Source of the DNA: Thermoplasmata archaeon
GTDB taxonomy: Archaea; Thermoplasmatota; E2; JACPAO01; JAHFTW01
DNA length: 64,000 bases
Direction of reading: 5' to 3'
Assembly: GCA_034667725.1 (NCBI GenBank)
Contig: JAXDQS010000005.1
Span: forward strand, 96,001 to 160,000
Under the pieces are notes generated by a model. It did no database searches, was not told the DNA's origin, and saw only the letters and a list, made by a program, of their open reading frames with translations. Both the position numbers and the translations under genes were made by a program. Of this stretch, positions 37,404 to 61,766 are shown piece after piece (position 1 is the stretch's first letter; every line of letters starts with the position of its first letter).

Positions 37404-38561
37404 ATGAGAGACGTCTGCGTCGTCGGCGTGGGGACCACCAAGTACGGCCGCCACGACCTTGCCGCCCGCGAGCTGATGGCATCGGCCGCCCAGGCCGCCA
37501 TCGCGTCGGCGGGCATCGACCCCGCCAAGCTCCAGTCGGGCTTCTTCGGCAACGCCTTCGGGGTCGCGGAGAAGCAGGGCCACCTCGGCCCGCTCATCAT
37601 GAGCGCCTTGGGCCTCGACTCGGTGCCGGCCACCGTGGTCGAGACCGCGTGCGCCTCCGGCGGCACGGCGTTCCACCACGGCTACCGCGAGGTCGCCGGC
37701 GGCTTCTCGGACGCGGTGCTGGTGGGCGGCGTCGAGCGCGTCTCGATGCTGGACACCTTGACGGCGACGACCTACTTCGCCTACGGCTCCGACTACACCT
37801 ACGAAGGCGGCACCGGCTGCTCGTTCCCAGGCCTCTACGCCACCATGGCGCGCGGCTACTTCCAGCGGCACGGCGCCACCGAGCAGGACCTCGCCGCGGT
37901 CGCCATCAAGAACCACGCCAACGCCGTCCACAACCCCGTCGCGCACCTGCAGAAGGCGATCACGCTGGAGGACGTCATGGGCAGCATGAAGGTCGCGGAT
38001 CCCCTCAAGCTCTACGACGCCTGCCCGTTCTCGGACGGCGCCGCCGCGGCCATCCTGTGCAGCGAGGAGATGGCGCGGGAATTGACGGACACGCCAGTCT
38101 ACATCGAGGCCTCCGAGCGCCGCGGCAGCATCGCGAGCCTGCACGACCGCGAGGATTTGACCAGCCTGCCCGGCGCCGTCGAGGCGTCCCGCGTCGCGCT
38201 CGCCAAGGCCAAGGTCGGCCTGGACGACGTCGACTTCTTCGAGGTCCACGACTGCTTCACCATCGCCGAGATCGTTGCCTCCGAGGACATCGGCCTGTTC
38301 AAGCGCGGCACCGGCGCCAAGGAGGCAGTCGCGGGCACCACGGCCCTCGGCGGCCGGCGCCCCATCAACCCGAGCGGCGGCCTCAAGGCCAAGGGCCACC
38401 CGGTCGGCGCCACCGGCGTCGGCCAGGTCGTCGAGGTCTACGAGCAACTGCTCGGCGAGGCTGGCGGCCGGCAACTGGACGAGCCCCTGCGCGGCATGAC
38501 CCACAACGTGGGCGCCACCGGCGGCACCGTCGTCGTCAACATCCTGGCCCGGAGGAACTAG
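37404..38561 (+). CDS. Thiolase (acetyl-CoA acetyltransferase), archaeal type
   Basis: ETACASG, EVHDCF, NPSGGLKAKGHPVGATG. Confidence 0.93.
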   Translation: MRDVCVVGVGTTKYGRHDLAARELMASAAQAAIASAGIDPAKLQSGFFGNAFGVAEKQGHLGPLIMSALGLDSVPATVVETACASGGTAFHHGYREVAGGFSDAVLVGGVERVSMLDTLTATTYFAYGSDYTYEGGTGCSFPGLYATMARGYFQRHGATEQDLAAVAIKNHANAVHNPVAHLQKAITLEDVMGSMKVADPLKLYDACPFSDGAAAAILCSEEMARELTDTPVYIEASERRGSIASLHDREDLTSLPGAVEASRVALAKAKVGLDDVDFFEVHDCFTIAEIVASEDIGLFKRGTGAKEAVAGTTALGGRRPINPSGGLKAKGHPVGATGVGQVVEVYEQLLGEAGGRQLDEPLRGMTHNVGATGGTVVVNILARRN

Positions 38562-38562
38562 C

Positions 38563-39003
38563 ATGACGGCAGGCAAACCCCAGGTCGTCGTCGCGGCGCA
38601 GCACGGCCACGGCGAGGACTCCCACCTGTCCGCGCGGCCCATCATGAGCCTCAAGGAGCAGCGCGACGCGCTCAAGGACGGCCGCGTCGTCGGCTTCCAC
38701 TGCGCCAACTGCAAGGTCGACCGCTTCAGCCCGATGCTGCGCTGCCCCAAGTGCGCCGGCACCAACATCCAGCAACGCGAGTTCAGCAAGACCGGCGCCG
38801 TCGTCAGCTACACCATCCAAAGCGTCGCCTCGGAGCAGTTCCTCAACGAGACGCCGTTCGCGTTCGCCGTGATCCAACTGGACGACGGGCCGAAAGTGTC
38901 CGGGTGGATTCCGTGGATCGCGAAGCCCAAGGACTTGTCGATTGGGCAGAAGGTCGAGTACGTCCCGAGCTACAAGCCGGGGATGATGTTCGAGAAACGT
39001 TGA
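38563..39003 (+). CDS. DUF35 Zn-ribbon/OB-fold thiolase partner
   Basis: CANC..P..CPKC, G.VVSYT, AVIQLDDG; adjacent to the thiolase. Confidence 0.9.
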   Translation: MTAGKPQVVVAAQHGHGEDSHLSARPIMSLKEQRDALKDGRVVGFHCANCKVDRFSPMLRCPKCAGTNIQQREFSKTGAVVSYTIQSVASEQFLNETPFAFAVIQLDDGPKVSGWIPWIAKPKDLSIGQKVEYVPSYKPGMMFEKR

Positions 39004-39023
39004 GCATGGCATCGCTGAAGCGG

Positions 39024-39471
39024 ACGACCCACACATCCTCGGATTCTGCGGGGTCTGTGGAATTGATGGCTGCCCCTCCATCACCCAAAGCGTCTGTGGA
39101 ATCTGTGCCCGCCGGAATGCGGCGACCCACACAGATTCCGCAGATAGCTGCTCAAGCTTCCTCAAACCCTCTGTGGAATCTTTGCCCGGCCGAATTGCGC
39201 CGACCAACACAGATTCCCCAGATCGTCGCCCAAGCTTGGTGGGCCGCAAAGCAACTCCTCAGACCTCTATGGAAATCTGGGCCCGCCAGGTTACGACCCA
39301 CACAGATTCCACAGACCGTTGCTCAAGCTTGATGGGCCGCAACGCAATTCCCCAGATTCTCTGTGGAATCTGTGTCCGCCCGGAATGCGACGACCCACAC
39401 AGATTCCACAGACCGTTGCTCAAGCTTGATGGGCCGCAACGCAATTCCTCAGATTCTCGGTTGAATCGGTT
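39024..39471. repeat. Array of palindromic hairpin repeats (TCTGTGGAATCTGTG...CACAGATTCCACAGA), 4 units plus degenerate ends
   Basis: Arm pairs 39093-39107/39130-39144, 39170-39184/39208-39222, 39266-39280/39301-39315, 39360-39374/39398-39412. Confidence 0.9.
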
Positions 39472-39892
39472 GTCGTGCCGCATGGCCCGCGAAGGCCTCC
39501 TCGGTGTGCCGTGCTGGCTCGGCGTGACGGCCCACGACCCGGATGAACTGCAATTCCGATGAGCCGAAGTTCAGCAGGAGCCCGACGGGCAGCCGAGTCA
39601 CCGCGAGGTAGTTCGCAAGCTGTCCCACCTCGCGCCGCCCGACCGTGTCCAGCGCCTTCAGCTCCACGAGGATGGACTTGTGGCAAATGTAGTCGGCCCG
39701 GAACGATTTCGTAAGTTGGACGCCGTCGTACCACACGGTCAGCGGCACTTCGGACTCCGCGGGGATGCCGCGGCGCTTGAACTCCACGCCCAAGGCTTCC
39801 TGGTACACGGACTCCAAGTAGCCTGGCCGGAGTTCCCGATGGACCTTCATCGCGGCGCCGATGATGGCGAACGTCCGCGCGTCGTTGCGCAT
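39449..39892 (-). CDS. GxxExxY protein (PD-(D/E)XK nuclease-like)
   Basis: IIGAAMKVHREL.PGYLESVY, RADYIC..ILVELKA, QLANYL, GLLLNFG. Confidence 0.92.
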   Translation of the reverse strand: MRNDARTFAIIGAAMKVHRELRPGYLESVYQEALGVEFKRRGIPAESEVPLTVWYDGVQLTKSFRADYICHKSILVELKALDTVGRREVGQLANYLAVTRLPVGLLLNFGSSELQFIRVVGRHAEPARHTEEAFAGHAARQPIQPRI

Positions 39893-39970
39893 GGGGGGCG
39901 GCACGGGCGGATTACAGTTTCACAGTTGGCTGAACTCAAGTGAAACTACTCATCTGGGAATCCCTCCCAG

Positions 39971-42900
39971 TCAAGCCGCTTCCACCGCCGCCGGCCGCAC
40001 CGTCCGCGTCGGCTTGACCTCGGCGCGCACGACGGCGCCGTCGATGTCCCACGCGGGGCCTTTGGTGGCCGGGCCGAACGACAAGTGGCGGGCGCGCACT
40101 TCGGCCTTGAGCACGTGGAGGAACTGCTGGAGCTGGGCTTCCTGGTCGGGGCCGCAGCCGATTTCGACGTCGACCTCCTCGGCGATGGGCAGGTCCAGTT
40201 CCTTGCGGACCTCCTGAATGCGGCGGACGACCTCGCGCACGAGGGCTTCGGCCAGGAGCTTCTCGTCGCGCAGGACGTGGAGCGCCAGGATGACGTCGCC
40301 GACCTTGGTGGTGGCCCAGCCGGGGCGGTCGCGCTCCTCGAACAGCACGTGCTCGGCGCCGAGGGCGTGGTCTTGGCCTTCGACGTTGACGCCGACGGTC
40401 TTGCCGGCGGCGAGCTGGCGGTGGGCGGCGTCGCCGTCGAGGCCTTCGATGGCGTCCGCGATGGGGCCGCCGAGCTTCTTGAACGCCTTGCCCAAAGCGG
40501 CGCGGTTGGGCTTGGCGACGAACTGCTTGAAGGCGGCGGCGTCGGGGGCGGTCTCGATGGCCTTGACGTTGATCTCTTCTTGGAGGATGGCGCCGAACCG
40601 GCCGGCCTCCTGGCCCACCAGGACGGCGCGGCCGAGCGGGTGGCGGGTCGGGATGTTGACCTTGCTGCGGAGGGCGCGGGCGGCCTCGGCGAGGCTCCGG
40701 ACGGTGGCCATCTCGCGCTCAAGGGCCTCCTCGCGGGCGCCGGGCTCGGGCAGGAGGGCGAGATGGACGCTGGCGGGGTCTTGGTCGGTGCGCAGCAGGG
40801 GCCACATCGACTCGACCATGAAGGGCGCGAACGGCGCCACCATGCGGCTGATCGTGTGCAGCGCGGTCCAGAGGGCGCTGTGGGCGGAGCGCTTGTCCTT
40901 GGAGTCGCGTTCGGCCCAGAAGCGGTCGCGGCTGCGGCGCAGCCACCAGTTGGAGAGGTCGTCGATGACGAAGGCCTCGATGGCGCGGGTGGCCTTGTGC
41001 AGGTGGTAGCGGTCGGCCTCGAAGCGCGCCTCGGTAAGGGTGGCGTTGAGGCGGGACAGCAGCCAGCGGTCCAGGTCGCTCCACTCCTTGGGCGGCACGG
41101 CTTGGCTGGGCGTCCAGTGGTCGAGGCCGGCGTACTGGTGGTGGAACAGGAAGGTGTTCCAGAGGGTGCTGAAGAACTTCCCGAAGGTCTCGCGGACGGC
41201 CTCCTCGTAGAACCGCTTGTCCTGCCAGGGCGCCGTGGCCGACAGGAGGTACCAGCGGGTGGCGTCGGCGCCTTGGGTGGCAAAGACGTGGTCGGGCGGG
41301 ACGTAGTTCTTCTTCGACTTCGACATCTTGGTGCCGTCTTCCGCCAGGATGAGGCCGTTGACCACGCAGTTGCGGTAGGCAGGTCCCTGGAACAGGCCGG
41401 CGGCCTTGGCGTCGGGGGCTTGGCCGAGGGCGGTGGCAGACGCCAGGAGCGAGTAGAACCAGCCGCGGGTCTGGTCGAGACCTTCCGAGATGAAGTCGAT
41501 TGGCCACTGGGCCTGGAGGTTCGGGTTCTGGAGGCTGGTGGCCTTCCATTGCGCGAACTGGGCGGCGCCGGAGTCGTACCAGACGTCGATGACGTAGGGC
41601 TCGCGCTCGGCCTTGCCGCCGCACTTGGCGCACGCAATCGGCTGGTCGACGTAGGGGCGGTGCAGCTCGGGGGCCTTGATGCCGGCCTTCTCCAGTTCGG
41701 CGCGGCTGCCGAGGCAGCGCTGGGCGCCGCAGGAGGTGCAGGTCCAGATTGGCAGCGGCGTGCCCCAGAAGCGGCTGCGGCTGAACGCCCAGTCCTTGAC
41801 GTTGCGCAGCCAGTCGCCCATGCGGCCCTCCTGGATAGTCTCGGGCACCCAGTTGATCTGCTGGTTGTTCGCCAAGAGTTGGCCGCGCAGCTGGCTCATG
41901 CGGATGTACCAGGAGTCCATCGCGTAGTACAGGAGCGGGTGGCCGGTGCGCCAGCAGTGCGGGTAGCTGTGCTCGTAGGTCTCGGAGCGGTAGAGGGAAT
42001 CCGTCGCCTTGAGATGCTGGAGGATGCGTGCCTCGGTGTCCGCCGCCTTGACGGGGAGCCCGCCGACGCCGCCGGGGACGTGGCCGAGGAAGCTGCCGTC
42101 GAGGCCGACGGTGTGCTGCGCGGGCAGGTTCTCGCGCATCCCGAGCTGGTAGTCGTCCTCGCCGTACATCACGGCGGTGTGGACAACACCGGTGCCGTCC
42201 TCGGTGGTGACGAACTCGGCGGGCACGACGACGAACGCCTTCTTGCCGGTGGGGTCGACGGCGCCGGGAAACAGCGGGCGGTACTTCCTGCCCACCAGGT
42301 CGCGGCCCTTCATCTCCGCGATCACCTGCGACTCGTTCCGAAGCGCCTTCTTCTGGAGCGCCTTGGCGACGATCAGCACCTCGCCCTCCTTGGCGTCGGC
42401 CTTGTCGGAGGCCTTGAGCACGCGGACCTTGACGTACTCGATGTCGGGCCCGACGGCGAGCGCGACGTTGCCGGGCAGCGTCCACGGCGTCGTGGTCCAG
42501 GAGAGGACGCGGGCGCCGTCCTTGTCGCCCTCGAGGTGGAACTTGACGAAGACCGCGGTGTCCTTGACGTCCTTGTAGCCGAGCGCCACCTCGTGGCTGG
42601 AGTAGCTGGTGCCGGTCTGCGGGCAGTAGGGGACGACCTTGTGGGCCTTGTGCAGCAGGCCCTGCTCCCACAGGCGCTGAAGGCTCCACCACACGGACTC
42701 GATGTAGCCGTCGTCCATCGTGACGTAGGGGTCGGCGTAGTCGAGCCAGAAGCCGACGCGCTCCGACATGGCCTCCCAGTCCTTCTTGTAGCGGAACACG
42801 GAGTCGCGGCACTTCTGGTTGAACCGGTCCATGCCGTACTCCAGGATCTGGCCGACATGCTCGATGCCCAGCTCCTTCTGCACCTCGATCTCGACCGGCA

Positions 42901-43189
42901 GGCCATGGCAGTCCCAGCCGGCCTTGCGCGGCACCCACTTGCCCTGCATCGCGTGGTAGCGGCAAACGGCGTCCTTCAGGGTGCGCGTCAGCACGTGGCC
43001 CGGGTGGGGCAGGCCGTTCGCGGTCGGCGGGCCCTCCAGGAACACGAACTTGCGGGCAGGGTCCTGCGCCGCGTTGGCCTTGCCCTGCTCGACCTGGCGC
43101 TGGAAGGTGCCCTCGCGGGCCCACTTCTCGAGGACGCGCCGCTCCATCACGTCGGGCACGTAGCGCTTGGGGACGGCGGGGCGTTCCAT
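39971..43189 (-). CDS. ileS: Isoleucine--tRNA ligase (archaeal/eukaryote-type)
   Basis: EGPPTANGLPHPGH, GWDCHGLP, WTTTPWTLP, GTGVVH, EGLDQTRGWFY, KMSKS. Confidence 0.97.
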   Translation of the reverse strand: MERPAVPKRYVPDVMERRVLEKWAREGTFQRQVEQGKANAAQDPARKFVFLEGPPTANGLPHPGHVLTRTLKDAVCRYHAMQGKWVPRKAGWDCHGLPVEIEVQKELGIEHVGQILEYGMDRFNQKCRDSVFRYKKDWEAMSERVGFWLDYADPYVTMDDGYIESVWWSLQRLWEQGLLHKAHKVVPYCPQTGTSYSSHEVALGYKDVKDTAVFVKFHLEGDKDGARVLSWTTTPWTLPGNVALAVGPDIEYVKVRVLKASDKADAKEGEVLIVAKALQKKALRNESQVIAEMKGRDLVGRKYRPLFPGAVDPTGKKAFVVVPAEFVTTEDGTGVVHTAVMYGEDDYQLGMRENLPAQHTVGLDGSFLGHVPGGVGGLPVKAADTEARILQHLKATDSLYRSETYEHSYPHCWRTGHPLLYYAMDSWYIRMSQLRGQLLANNQQINWVPETIQEGRMGDWLRNVKDWAFSRSRFWGTPLPIWTCTSCGAQRCLGSRAELEKAGIKAPELHRPYVDQPIACAKCGGKAEREPYVIDVWYDSGAAQFAQWKATSLQNPNLQAQWPIDFISEGLDQTRGWFYSLLASATALGQAPDAKAAGLFQGPAYRNCVVNGLILAEDGTKMSKSKKNYVPPDHVFATQGADATRWYLLSATAPWQDKRFYEEAVRETFGKFFSTLWNTFLFHHQYAGLDHWTPSQAVPPKEWSDLDRWLLSRLNATLTEARFEADRYHLHKATRAIEAFVIDDLSNWWLRRSRDRFWAERDSKDKRSAHSALWTALHTISRMVAPFAPFMVESMWPLLRTDQDPASVHLALLPEPGAREEALEREMATVRSLAEAARALRSKVNIPTRHPLGRAVLVGQEAGRFGAILQEEINVKAIETAPDAAAFKQFVAKPNRAALGKAFKKLGGPIADAIEGLDGDAAHRQLAAGKTVGVNVEGQDHALGAEHVLFEERDRPGWATTKVGDVILALHVLRDEKLLAEALVREVVRRIQEVRKELDLPIAEEVDVEIGCGPDQEAQLQQFLHVLKAEVRARHLSFGPATKGPAWDIDGAVVRAEVKPTRTVRPAAVEAA

Positions 43190-58708: not shown

Positions 58709-59425
58709 TTAGTGCTGCGACTTCTCCAGGACGCGCACGTGCTCGCCCTTGACGGTGATGGGGATCGGCACCATGGACTCGATGAGCTCCACCGTGATCT
58801 CCTCCTTGGTGTCGTCGACGCGGGTGACCTTGGCCTTCTCGCCGCGGAACGGACCGCTCACGAGCTCCACGATGTCGCCCTCCGCGATCTTGGCGACGGC
58901 GGACACCGGCGTCAGGAAATGCGCGATCTCCGAGAACGGAATGTCCACCGGAATCTTGCGGGTGACCACCTTGCCGCGGCGGTCGCGCGCGATGTTGCCG
59001 TTCTCGTCCCGGACCTCCTCCTGGCGCGTCACGAGGGCGCGGGCGTAGGAGACGCCGCGGATGCCCTTCTCGGCCTCCAACGGGTTCGAGGTCTCCAAGA
59101 AGACGAAGCCGCGCAGCTCGGCGGGGCTCAGGATGGCGCTGATCGGGAGCTTGAAGCGGCGCGCCTTGTTGCCCAGCGCCTCCGCCACGCGGCGCTCCTG
59201 GCCGACCTGGGTCTTGAGGACCAGGATCTGGCTGCCGGTGAGCGCCTCGGGCTCGGTGTCCGCGATCTCGGCGCGCTTGGCCTTCTTGCGACGCGGCGTC
59301 TTGGCGTCCTTCGGCTCCGCGGGGTTGTCCTGCGTGACGGCGGGCGTCGCGGTGGGCTTGGCCTGGGCCTTCTGGGCCAGCTCTTCCTTCGTGGGTAGGA
59401 TGCCGAGGTCGCCTTCGTCCTGCAT
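58709..59425 (-). CDS. spt5: Transcription elongation factor Spt5
   Basis: KTQVGQE, LRGFVFLE (NGN domain); GDIVELVSGPFRGEKAKV (KOW), VPIPITV. Confidence 0.93.
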   Translation of the reverse strand: MQDEGDLGILPTKEELAQKAQAKPTATPAVTQDNPAEPKDAKTPRRKKAKRAEIADTEPEALTGSQILVLKTQVGQERRVAEALGNKARRFKLPISAILSPAELRGFVFLETSNPLEAEKGIRGVSYARALVTRQEEVRDENGNIARDRRGKVVTRKIPVDIPFSEIAHFLTPVSAVAKIAEGDIVELVSGPFRGEKAKVTRVDDTKEEITVELIESMVPIPITVKGEHVRVLEKSQH

Positions 59426-59552
59426 GGATTTTCACCGCTTGCTCCCGCTGGGTCCCAACAAGAGCAAGGGTCGCGACAAGGCGACGGTATTTGGGCGTTG
59501 CGCAGAAGGCGGTCGATTTCCAGGGTTGGCTCGCCGTTGGCTGCTCAACTCA

Positions 59553-59820
59553 GAAGATTCCCACAGAGGCCTGTGGAGTCTGTGTCTAGTTGCGGTCGCG
59601 ACGAGCACTGATTCTCTCAGATTCGGAAGATTCCCACAGAACTCCGTGGAATCTGTGTCTAGTTGCGGCCGCCCACGAGCACTGATTTACCCAGATTCGG
59701 AAGATTCCCTCAAAACTCTGTGGAATCTGTGTCCAGTCGGCGGCTCCGCGACGAGCACTGATTTGCACAGATTCGGAAGATTCCCACAGAACTCTGTGGA
59801 ATCTGTGTCCAGTCGGCGGC
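59553..59820. repeat. Tandem array of about 3.6 units of 73-76 bp sharing the TCTGTGGAATCTGTG core
   Basis: Units start with GAAGATTCC at 59553, 59626, 59700 and 59776. Confidence 0.92.
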
Positions 59821-60554: not shown

Positions 60555-61766
60555 CTACAGGACGCGGACCTGCGCCGCCGCCCGCTTCGCCTTGGCGCGC
60601 GCCTCGGAGATTGTCGCCCCACTGGCAACAATCACGCCCATGCGGCGGTTGCGGTGCGCCGCGGGCTTGCCGAACAGGCGGATGGCGGTGCCGGGCTCGG
60701 CCAGCGCCGCCTCGACGCCTTCGAACGCCGGCGGCTCCGACGACGCCGTGGCGAGGATGACGGCGCTGGCGGTCGGGCCGAGGTGGCCGACGTCGGGGAT
60801 GGGCAGGCCGGTGATGGCGCGGACGTGCAGCGCGAACTCCGACAGGGTCTGGCTGCCGAGGGTCACGAGGCCGGTGTCGTGCGGGCGCGGGCTGACCTCG
60901 GAGAACCAGACCTCGTCGCCGGCGACGAACAGCTCGACGCCGAACAGGCCGCGGCCGCCGAGCGCCTCGGTGACGCTGCGTCCAATGGCTTGGCTGCGCT
61001 GGAGGGCGACGGGGGACATGGCCATGGGCTGCCAGGACTCGCGGTAGTCGCCGTCGACCTGGACATGGCCGATGGGCGGGCAGAAGGTGGTGCCGCCGGC
61101 GTGGCGGATGGTGAGGAGCGTGATCTCGTACTCGAACGGGATGAACGACTCGACGATGACGCGGCCGGTGTTGACGCGCCCCTGCATCGCGTAGGCCCAC
61201 GCCTTGTCCACGTCCGCGTGCGCGCGCACGACGCTCTGGCCCTTGCCGCTGCTGCTCATGGTCGGCTTGACGACGCACGGGAACCCGATGGCGGCGACGG
61301 CGGCGCGGAACTCCTCCGGGCTGCTTGCGAATTGATAGCGGCTCGTGGGCAGGCCCAAGGTCTCGGCGGCCAGGCGGCGGATGCCTTCGCGGTCCATCGT
61401 GAGGCGGGCGGCGCGCGCGGTCGGCACCACGTGGAACCCCTCGGCCTCCAGCTTCTCCAGCTCGGCGGTGGCGATGGCCTCGATCTCCGGCACGATCCAG
61501 TCCGGGTCCTCCTGCTCGATGACGGCGCGCAACGCCTTCGAATCGGTCATGTCCACGACGTGGCTGCGGTGCGCCACCTGCATCGCCGGCGCGTTGGGGT
61601 AACGGTCCACGGCCACCGTCTCGATCCCCAGCCGCTGCGCCTCCAGCACGACCTCCTTCCCAAGCTCGCCGGAGCCCAAGAGCAGCATCTTGCGGGCGTT
61701 GCTGGCAAGCGGGGTGCCCCAGGCCACGGCCGCCGTGCGCGAAGCCACCGATATAGACGTTTCCAC
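60555..61766 (-). CDS. purT: Formate-dependent phosphoribosylglycinamide formyltransferase
   Basis: [49 protein letters not shown]. Confidence 0.96.

Follow-up and report, generated by a model that had tools for sequence, protein, structure and literature searches.

A GxxExxY nuclease-like gene joined to a hairpin repeat array in a Thermoplasmatota genome: a possible rearranged member of a family of nuclease-repeat cassettes

A small gene for a GxxExxY nuclease-like protein that runs, at its 3' end, into an array of hairpin-forming repeats raises the question of whether gene and repeats belong together and, if they do, whether the protein acts on the repeats or even spreads them. We addressed this question in G000, a Thermoplasmatota metagenome-assembled genome (MAG) of 2.32 Mb in 26 contigs (71% GC, 90% completeness), where the locus lies within a stretch of 64,000 nt (C5:96001-160000) hereafter called the window. 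A preliminary description had proposed a candidate REP/RAYT-like system. Thiolase matches at 74-85% identity all come from Thermoplasmata/Thermoplasmatota MAGs (soil, sand and groundwater), which marks the host as an uncultured archaeon. The features of the locus, in window positions, are the following.

38563-39003, plus strand: DUF35/ChsH2-type gene, converging with ileS
39024..39470: tandem array of four to five units, with a period of 78 and then of 94-97, each unit holding inverted copies of a 15-nt core
39093..39144: hairpin 1, arms 39093-39107 and 39130-39144, loop of 22 nt
39170..39222: hairpin 2, arms 39170-39184 and 39208-39222, loop of 23 nt
39266..39315: hairpin 3, degenerate left arm 39266-39280 (one extra base), right arm 39301-39315, loop of 20 nt
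39360..39412: hairpin 4, perfect 16-nt arms, loop of 21-23 nt
39437..39473, minus strand: degenerate 3' (right) arm of the cassette itself, with the stop codon inside it; it is also the first array unit and can be aligned with the right arms in the cassettes of G007 and G006
39449..39904, minus strand: GxxExxY/PDDEXK_3 nuclease gene, open reading frame (ORF) from a GTG at 39904 with a likely ATG start at 39892 (protein of 147 aa), matching PF13366 and TIGR04256
39905..39970, minus strand: 5' leader (GC 50%); a single sub-terminal motif resembling a unit stands near 39950-39965
39971-43189, minus strand: ileS, its stop codon (39971-39973) abutting the 5' leader of the GxxExxY gene

Our analysis confirms the layout first described for this locus. 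At its 3' end the gene is met by four hairpin units, with arms of 15-16 nt (15 bp had been given) and loops of 20-23 nt, and they start 77, 96 and 94 nt from one another. TRF divides the array into a period of 78 (2.0 copies) and a period of 97 (3.2 copies), and for the 15-mer core, with up to two mismatches allowed, the window has 11 matches where 0.02 would be expected. Folded as single-stranded DNA, the stretch 39040-39480 yields these same hairpins at -95.4 kcal/mol, compared with -66.2 kcal/mol for shuffles (z -5.8). As had also been stated, the cassette sits between the convergent DUF35 (plus strand) and ileS (minus strand) genes, the stop codon of the GxxExxY gene (39449-39451) falls inside the last, degenerate repeat unit, and the array lies in DNA of lower GC content, at 57.9% compared with 71.8% for the whole window, the gene being at 65.4% and the 5' spacer at 50%. 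This spacer, 66 nt long, separates the GxxExxY gene from ileS, which lies upstream on the same strand and whose stop codon is 5 nt from the sub-terminal unit-like motif of the leader. A search of Rfam with window positions 38000-41000 gave nothing meaningful.

As for the flanks, the thiolase and DUF35/ChsH2-type OB-fold genes (37404-39003), which we take to be an archaeal acetoacetyl-CoA thiolase module, are conserved as a pair in all genus relatives having a match. Synteny with these relatives stops exactly at the repeat and the cassette, ileS being a neighbor in none of them. At the corresponding site, 11 genus relatives retain the thiolase-DUF35 pair with neither an adjacent ileS nor a GxxExxY gene.

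The gene itself is intact, with all predicted catalytic residues present: G18, E21 and Y24 of the GxxExxY motif, D61, and E71 and K73 of the E-x-K motif are invariant in 17 sequences, including this protein. Its ORF matches PF13366 with 119.2 bits (cut-off 22, E 1.6e-34) and TIGR04256 with 127.8 bits (cut-off 35, E 2.4e-37), and searches of Pfam and NCBIfam with the protein returned only PDDEXK_3/GxxExxY, with no GIY-YIG domain (cd10448). The AF2 model (pLDDT 96.3) displays an alpha-beta nuclease core whose best Foldseek match is the Cas4 protein SSO0001 (PDB 4ic1), with a TM of 0.63, followed by weaker matches to XisH, Hjc and I-Bth0305I; among solved structures there was no sequence match to the protein. 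The nuclease domain ends near 39538, after which a tail of 25-30 aa reads into the repeat. The GC3 of the gene is 0.84, compared with 0.93-0.96 in its neighbors, and it is the only PF13366 gene of the host genome. PF13366/TIGR04256 is a very common protein family, the function of which is given as unknown in a survey of the PD-(D/E)XK superfamily (PMC3424549).

How did the array arise? Similarity is 90% between the two gene-proximal units and 71-81% for those farther out. The unit interiors (44 nt and 22 nt) have no second occurrence anywhere in the G000 genome, and only the 15-23-nt core is shared with other genomic loci. Because the unit interiors are unique to this locus, the array is a local tandem amplification of the 3'-arm region rather than a stack of a dispersed mini-element, and ordinary tandem duplication explains it. 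On the other side of the gene, the alignment to L022 and L043, two cassettes of genus relatives, has a gap where their left arms stand, so that the outer 5' arm is absent here. The cassette at this locus thus appears, from these alignments, to be rearranged, with its outer 5' arm missing and its 3' arm amplified locally.

To quantify inverted arms around GxxExxY genes, we took two stretches of 300 nt, one around the gene start and one around the gene end, and scored the best ungapped inverted repeat that they share (the bracket score), with a threshold of at least 14. The gene under study scores 8, which is background level and speaks against reading it as a cassette, since it has no clean bracket of its own: a degenerate 3' arm and a sub-terminal 5' unit stand where 82 of 123 loci in relatives have a bracket of inverted arms made of tandem 8-10-nt units. 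These 82 comprise 27 of 40 loci of the genus (15/20 and 12/20), 15 of 23 loci from other families of the phylum, including a genome of 37% GC, and 40 of 60 metagenome homologues (termite gut, rumen, marine and soil; 38-60% GC). The controls were 1/300 for random G000 positions (mean 9.3, maximum 14) and 0/85 for shifted positions in the same metagenome loci. The repeat enrichment near GxxExxY homologues that had been suggested as a check was therefore found in the genus, in the phylum and in unrelated metagenomes.

The arms have a characteristic architecture. Each consists of two to four tandem units of 8-10 nt with a 6-nt core, CAC-N-GA, inverted on both sides of the gene; 37 cassettes have a unit period of 9, ten a period of 10 and three a period of 8. 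The arms are 15-50 nt long and stand 420-720 nt apart, AACC or ATCC often precedes the first unit at their outer end, and in 15 of 24 genus cassettes the ORF extends into or through the 3' arm, as it does in this locus. Over 50 cassettes, mismatches between the two arms amount to 3.0% at core phases and 16.1% at spacer phases (odds ratio 6.3), or to 4.0% and 15.3% when a more circular definition of the core is used. Mismatches that avoid the unit cores argue for sequence-specific recognition and not for mere hairpin pairing. Moreover, where cassettes of different species share a site, all units of both arms differ together (L010 compared with L017 and L041), and every unit likewise differs between a solo arm of G000 and the arms of G001 and G009 at one site. 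Iterated binding sites for a co-evolving reader would predict both the core-sparing mismatches and the concerted change of units, and a plain hairpin requirement would predict neither.

Gene and repeat also occur together. Within the genus, a three-unit pattern is found in 12 of 12 relatives, with 1-122 copies each, and the 12 other species of the genus carry 1-8 PF13366 genes per genome. In 28 genomes from 25 further genera of that family, order and class, the pattern is down to 0-2 copies; the gene is absent from 27 of these genomes and present once in G033. For the phylum, gene and repeat were scored on the same set of 301 genomes: at least three copies of the pattern are found in 16 of 23 PF13366-positive genomes, from at least six families, and in 2 of 278 negative ones (G109 and G190), so the repeats are far from equally common where the gene is lacking. 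Since kin are not independent, we also counted lineages, which gave about 9 of 13 positive genera and 2 of approximately 124 negative ones. Copy number of the 15-mer does not correspond to gene number within the genus, as illustrated by G002 with 167 copies and by G001 with 43 copies and one gene, the arms of which are of CACGAAT type.

The type of arm, in turn, follows the protein clade, this gene included, so that the co-variation of gene and repeat that had been put forward as a check is seen. Among 24 genus cassettes, protein identity and arm similarity are correlated with a Mantel r of 0.45, or 0.34 when same-site pairs are left out, and 0 of 5000 permutations reached either value. The nearest protein in the genus is that of L022 in G007 (57% identity), the arms of which are of CACAGATTC type, like those of L043, and the arms of L022 and L043 are, among genus cassettes, those most like the array core. 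When metagenome homologues are ranked by similarity to this protein, CACAGAT arms stand on both sides in 12 of the 23 best and in 1 of the 37 weaker ones, and all four homologues with 54% identity, which come from DNA of 42-50% GC, carry them. That non-coding DNA should still be recognizable at such a protein distance implies constraint, and this is the main reason for our view that the protein would read the unit. Common descent of gene and arms, without a biochemical link, would also produce both co-variation and co-occurrence.

The repeat is abundant in the host genome, where we found 130 copies of the core 15-mer with up to one mismatch (0 for a reversed control) and, with up to two, 163 copies in 64 loci; the genome-wide count that had been suggested thus reveals a dispersed repeat. 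Some 46-64 further intergenic loci carry gene-less arms of CACAGATTC type, in the form of foldback hairpins and tandem arrays. Three contexts of the 15-mer can be told apart: head-to-tail arrays of a unit of approximately 75 nt made of four left-type and two right-type 9-nt units, a variant with a 43-nt insert, and foldback hairpins with short and dissimilar loops. When any repeated CAC-N-GA unit is sought by regular expression, two further gene-less families emerge in G000, CACGGA at 27 loci and CACCGA at 16 loci, neither with an evident cognate GxxExxY gene in this genome with its one PF13366 gene. Altogether, 73 of 94 repeat loci lie between genes according to rough gene calls, in 42 tandem, 22 convergent and 9 divergent gaps, and most of the other 21 are at the edges of over-extended gene calls. 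Gene-less examples are listed below.

59550..59810 (window), plus strand: second array of the core; its four units, 73-76 nt long and arranged head to tail, belong to the type seen across the genome, with four left-type and two right-type 9-nt units
C1:146359-146414: CACGGA foldback
C3:171719-171776: CACGGA foldback
C10:437530-437585: CACGGA foldback

The second array of the window lies between purT (60555-61766, minus strand) and an Spt5/NusG gene (58709-59425, minus strand), a position that puts it just upstream of an essential transcription-factor gene. CACGGATTG and CACCGAG are other repeat units of the genome that holds CACAGATTC. The CACGGA foldbacks mostly carry three 9-nt units in each arm around a loop of 8-10 nt, and in the CACGGA and CACCGA hairpins the 6-nt cores are mirrored and the 3-nt spacers often are not.

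With G000 as the reference, we compared the flanks of 38 cassettes from other species in order to follow inheritance and turnover. In three same-site sets the proteins are each other's nearest, at 69-87% identity, which fits vertical descent. Three other one-site sets (L043/L045, L019/L024 and L027/L054/L055) hold proteins only 44-55% identical, with different arms, and one cassette type, with CACGAAT arms, is found at two sites in different species (L016/L021 and L050/L053). In G001 and G009, a full CACGAAT-armed cassette lies between two conserved genes where G000 has only a solo two-unit right arm (C10:98950-99097), directly followed by the ribosome-binding site of the next gene. Degenerate, fragmentary and frameshifted cassette copies exist as well. 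These comparisons point to a history of birth-and-death with occasional relocation.

The preliminary description went further and proposed that the protein spreads the palindromes. This part of the claim finds no support, since target-site duplications and movement were not observed and the gene-less CACGGA and CACCGA families have no evident cognate gene. Direct repeats flanking 55 cassettes match the control distribution, which led us to reject a cut-and-paste transposon of the IS/MITE kind despite the presence of arms. Recent movement of the cassette was not seen either, the best metagenome homologue being only 54% identical and contigs from sequencing runs being uninformative: they break at the repeats without a reliable joint, and one skip of 1,287 nt has only 22 letters on its shorter side. 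The stretch is present in only two soil DNA sequencing runs, one of which is probably its source, with no RNA run among the listed holders. Phages contain no homologue of the protein, and on plasmids homologues are found in 8 of 72,556 records, all of them large non-mobilizable replicons. Several repeat families lacking an evident cognate gene, together with the missing target-site duplications and recent movement, leave self-mobilization no more than a possibility. What stands of the proposed REP/RAYT-like system is that gene and repeat belong together.

What, then, is this locus? With our confidence evenly balanced, we read it as a rearranged member of a family of GxxExxY cassettes, in which a unit-reading nuclease and its arms form a selfish or semi-domesticated partnership. 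A cassette would comprise the gene for a PD-(D/E)XK nuclease of approximately 115 residues, with a Cas4/RecB-like fold, normally placed between two inverted arms. Several protomers would recognize the repeated unit cores of both arms and cleave there or close by, gene and arms would be inherited as one unit and occasionally relocated, and gene-less arms would be derivatives or targets of such cassettes. It is this combination of unit reading, joint inheritance and gene-less derivatives or targets that would make the whole behave as a selfish or semi-domesticated partnership of nuclease and repeat. The parts of this reading differ in strength. Gene and arms are very probably one evolutionary unit, as judged from their sequences across genomes, and the balance tips toward the protein acting on the units. 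That it drives mobility of the cassette or of the repeats seems somewhat unlikely. The bracket, co-occurrence, co-variation, core conservation and intact catalytic motif are observed; binding, cleavage and any role of the nuclease in repeat spread are inferred. In the most far-reaching version, GxxExxY proteins would be unit-reading, site-specific nucleases that mobilize a cassette of approximately 0.5 kb and gene-less arms by cutting at 9-nt units, which host repair would then copy; this we consider doubtful.

Four other explanations deserve consideration. The locus could belong to a domesticated system like Ssn, that is, a site-specific nuclease, possibly acting on single-stranded DNA, which would cut dispersed repeats for the host (in DNA uptake, recombination or defense) and would not be self-mobile, its gene being flanked by its own sites as ssnA is by NTS repeats. 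The Ssn family (PMC11893778) has an equal layout, with a small nuclease gene flanked by hairpin repeats that are cut and of which hundreds are dispersed. Several of our cassettes stay at one site across species, target-site duplications are absent, and the repeats are intergenic with few in divergent, promoter-bearing gaps. Yet up to eight paralogous cassettes per genome, with different arm types and pseudogenized copies, suggest selfish units undergoing birth-and-death rather than a single host function; cassette types are discordant with sites, and the fold differs, GIY-YIG being absent. We therefore regard domestication of this kind as rather unlikely. It is also quite improbable that the repeats are independent REP-like elements, kept or copied by host factors or another enzyme as mRNA-end structures or protein-binding sites, with GxxExxY genes as passengers that would by preference insert into foldback loops or persist there. 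This idea draws on the gene-less foldbacks, which are 10-100 fold commoner than the genes, on the presence in G000 of three families and one gene, on G019, with 10 copies of a core variant and no PF13366 match, and on the unit triplets of G109 and G190. It is at odds with the near absence of this style of repeat in 276 of the 278 gene-negative genomes, with an arm type that follows the protein clade over very distant hosts, unlike a host-specific repeat, and with the joint change of all units of a cassette between species at one site.

The two remaining explanations fare worse. In a system acting at the RNA level, the arms would pair in the transcript around the ORF, affecting processing or stability as in the intervening sequences of 23S rRNA, or small RNAs from the repeats would guide the nuclease. 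Complementary arms would indeed give a long-range stem around the ORF, which often reads through the 3' arm, but complementarity is kept at unit cores and not at spacers, the 9-nt internal periodicity would have no role in a plain stem, and no Rfam family matched; we consider such a system very improbable. Chance adjacency of a genome-wide repeat and the only GxxExxY gene, with an array arising by replication slippage, has in its favor that the array is a local duplication and that 64 repeat loci in approximately 1,650-2,300 intergenic gaps would give some 5-8% of genes such a neighbor. It is strongly disfavored by the comparative data, namely the bracket statistics and the match of clade and arm, and the arms of related cassettes can be aligned with the 3' arm of this gene, itself a part of the array. 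Chance is thus extremely unlikely, and the link between gene and repeat appears to be real and general.

A characterized example had not been known to the authors of the preliminary description. For GxxExxY this holds, our literature search having found no paper linking PF13366/TIGR04256 to repeats, but the design is in print for other folds, in REP/RAYT and in Ssn/NTS (PMC11893778), which are the closest published counterparts of the cassette. Ssn systems consist of small GIY-YIG nuclease genes flanked by hairpin repeats that they cut and that exist in hundreds of dispersed copies. The resemblance extends to a small single-domain nuclease gene flanked on both sides by a hairpin-forming repeat dispersed in tens to hundreds, to repeat variants that co-vary with the homologue and to a wide distribution. 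GxxExxY has a PD-(D/E)XK and not a GIY-YIG fold as in SsnA, its arms are two to four tandem 9-nt units where Ssn has one hairpin motif, and its cassettes occur in archaea and bacteria with several paralogues per genome. With REP/REPIN elements and their RAYT (Y1/HUH) genes (PMC3116915, PMC3733652, PMC6006769), the cassettes share one or few enzyme genes flanked by inverted repeat copies, intergenic dispersal of the repeat as hairpins, doublets and clusters, and a lack of target-site duplications. They differ in the fold of the enzyme and in having arms that are periodic unit arrays, starting with AACC or ATCC and then CAC-N-GA units without a GTAG/CGTC head. We rejected membership of REP/RAYT because that head is absent and because the 90%-complete genome has no match to the Y1/HUH transposase (PF01797), for which controls matched.

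Likenesses to other mobile systems are more partial. Insertion sequences with their MITEs, as well as Tn7 and Mu, also have terminal inverted repeats around one gene and far more numerous gene-less derivatives, and each end of a GxxExxY cassette holds several binding-site-like units, as do the multi-site ends of Tn7 and Mu. Unlike them, the cassette is 420-640 bp long, lacks a known transposase family and would depend on a nuclease of approximately 115 residues alone, without known strand-transfer activity. I-Ssp6803I is a PD-(D/E)XK homing endonuclease, and such homing endonucleases and Cas4 belong to the same fold superfamily as GxxExxY. Spread by cutting and repair, as in homing, would leave no duplications and fit gene-less arms as targets, but the cassettes have no intron or intein context. 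The modeled fold matches Cas4 (PDB 4ic1) only modestly, at a TM of 0.63, and no Fe-S cluster module is seen in it. A CRISPR array with a Cas4-like nuclease was rejected, as a similarity of 71-90% extends over entire units, "spacers" included, and the arms are in inverted and not in direct orientation.

If the protein does read its own arm units, this would give a function to a large family and an origin to many "orphan" hairpin repeats that lie between genes in archaea and bacteria, and it would open up a natural repertoire of small nucleases whose short DNA specificities have diversified, as with Ssn. Should the mobilizing version hold as well, it would define a new class of mobile element without target-site duplications, found in archaea and bacteria, whose specificities have diversified together with the arm units. 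With a single gene, a matching repeat in high copy number and two additional families as built-in specificity controls, the host genome makes a useful test case.

Three minor observations complete the picture. At C5:34600-35000, approximately 61 kb before the window, stacked GC-rich folding cassettes of approximately 100-130 nt lie behind a tRNA gene; such tRNA-tail and gene-end cassettes of G000 were rejected as kin of the array, with which they have no CAC-N-GA units in common. In a second soil metagenome, from another study (run X2), a contig of 151 nt is identical to the interior of the nuclease gene (window 39545-39695), the pieces of this run over DUF35 and ileS are only approximately 86-90% alike and the array bins are uncovered, which could mean either that this gene recurs in a different background or that one and the same strain is thinly covered. 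Finally, in the G007 cassette (L022 1797-1814), the codons of a conserved LLLNFG motif look like an arm unit and show complementarity to a sub-terminal part of the 5' leader, a likeness that suggests a possible origin of the arm units in the gene's own 3' part.
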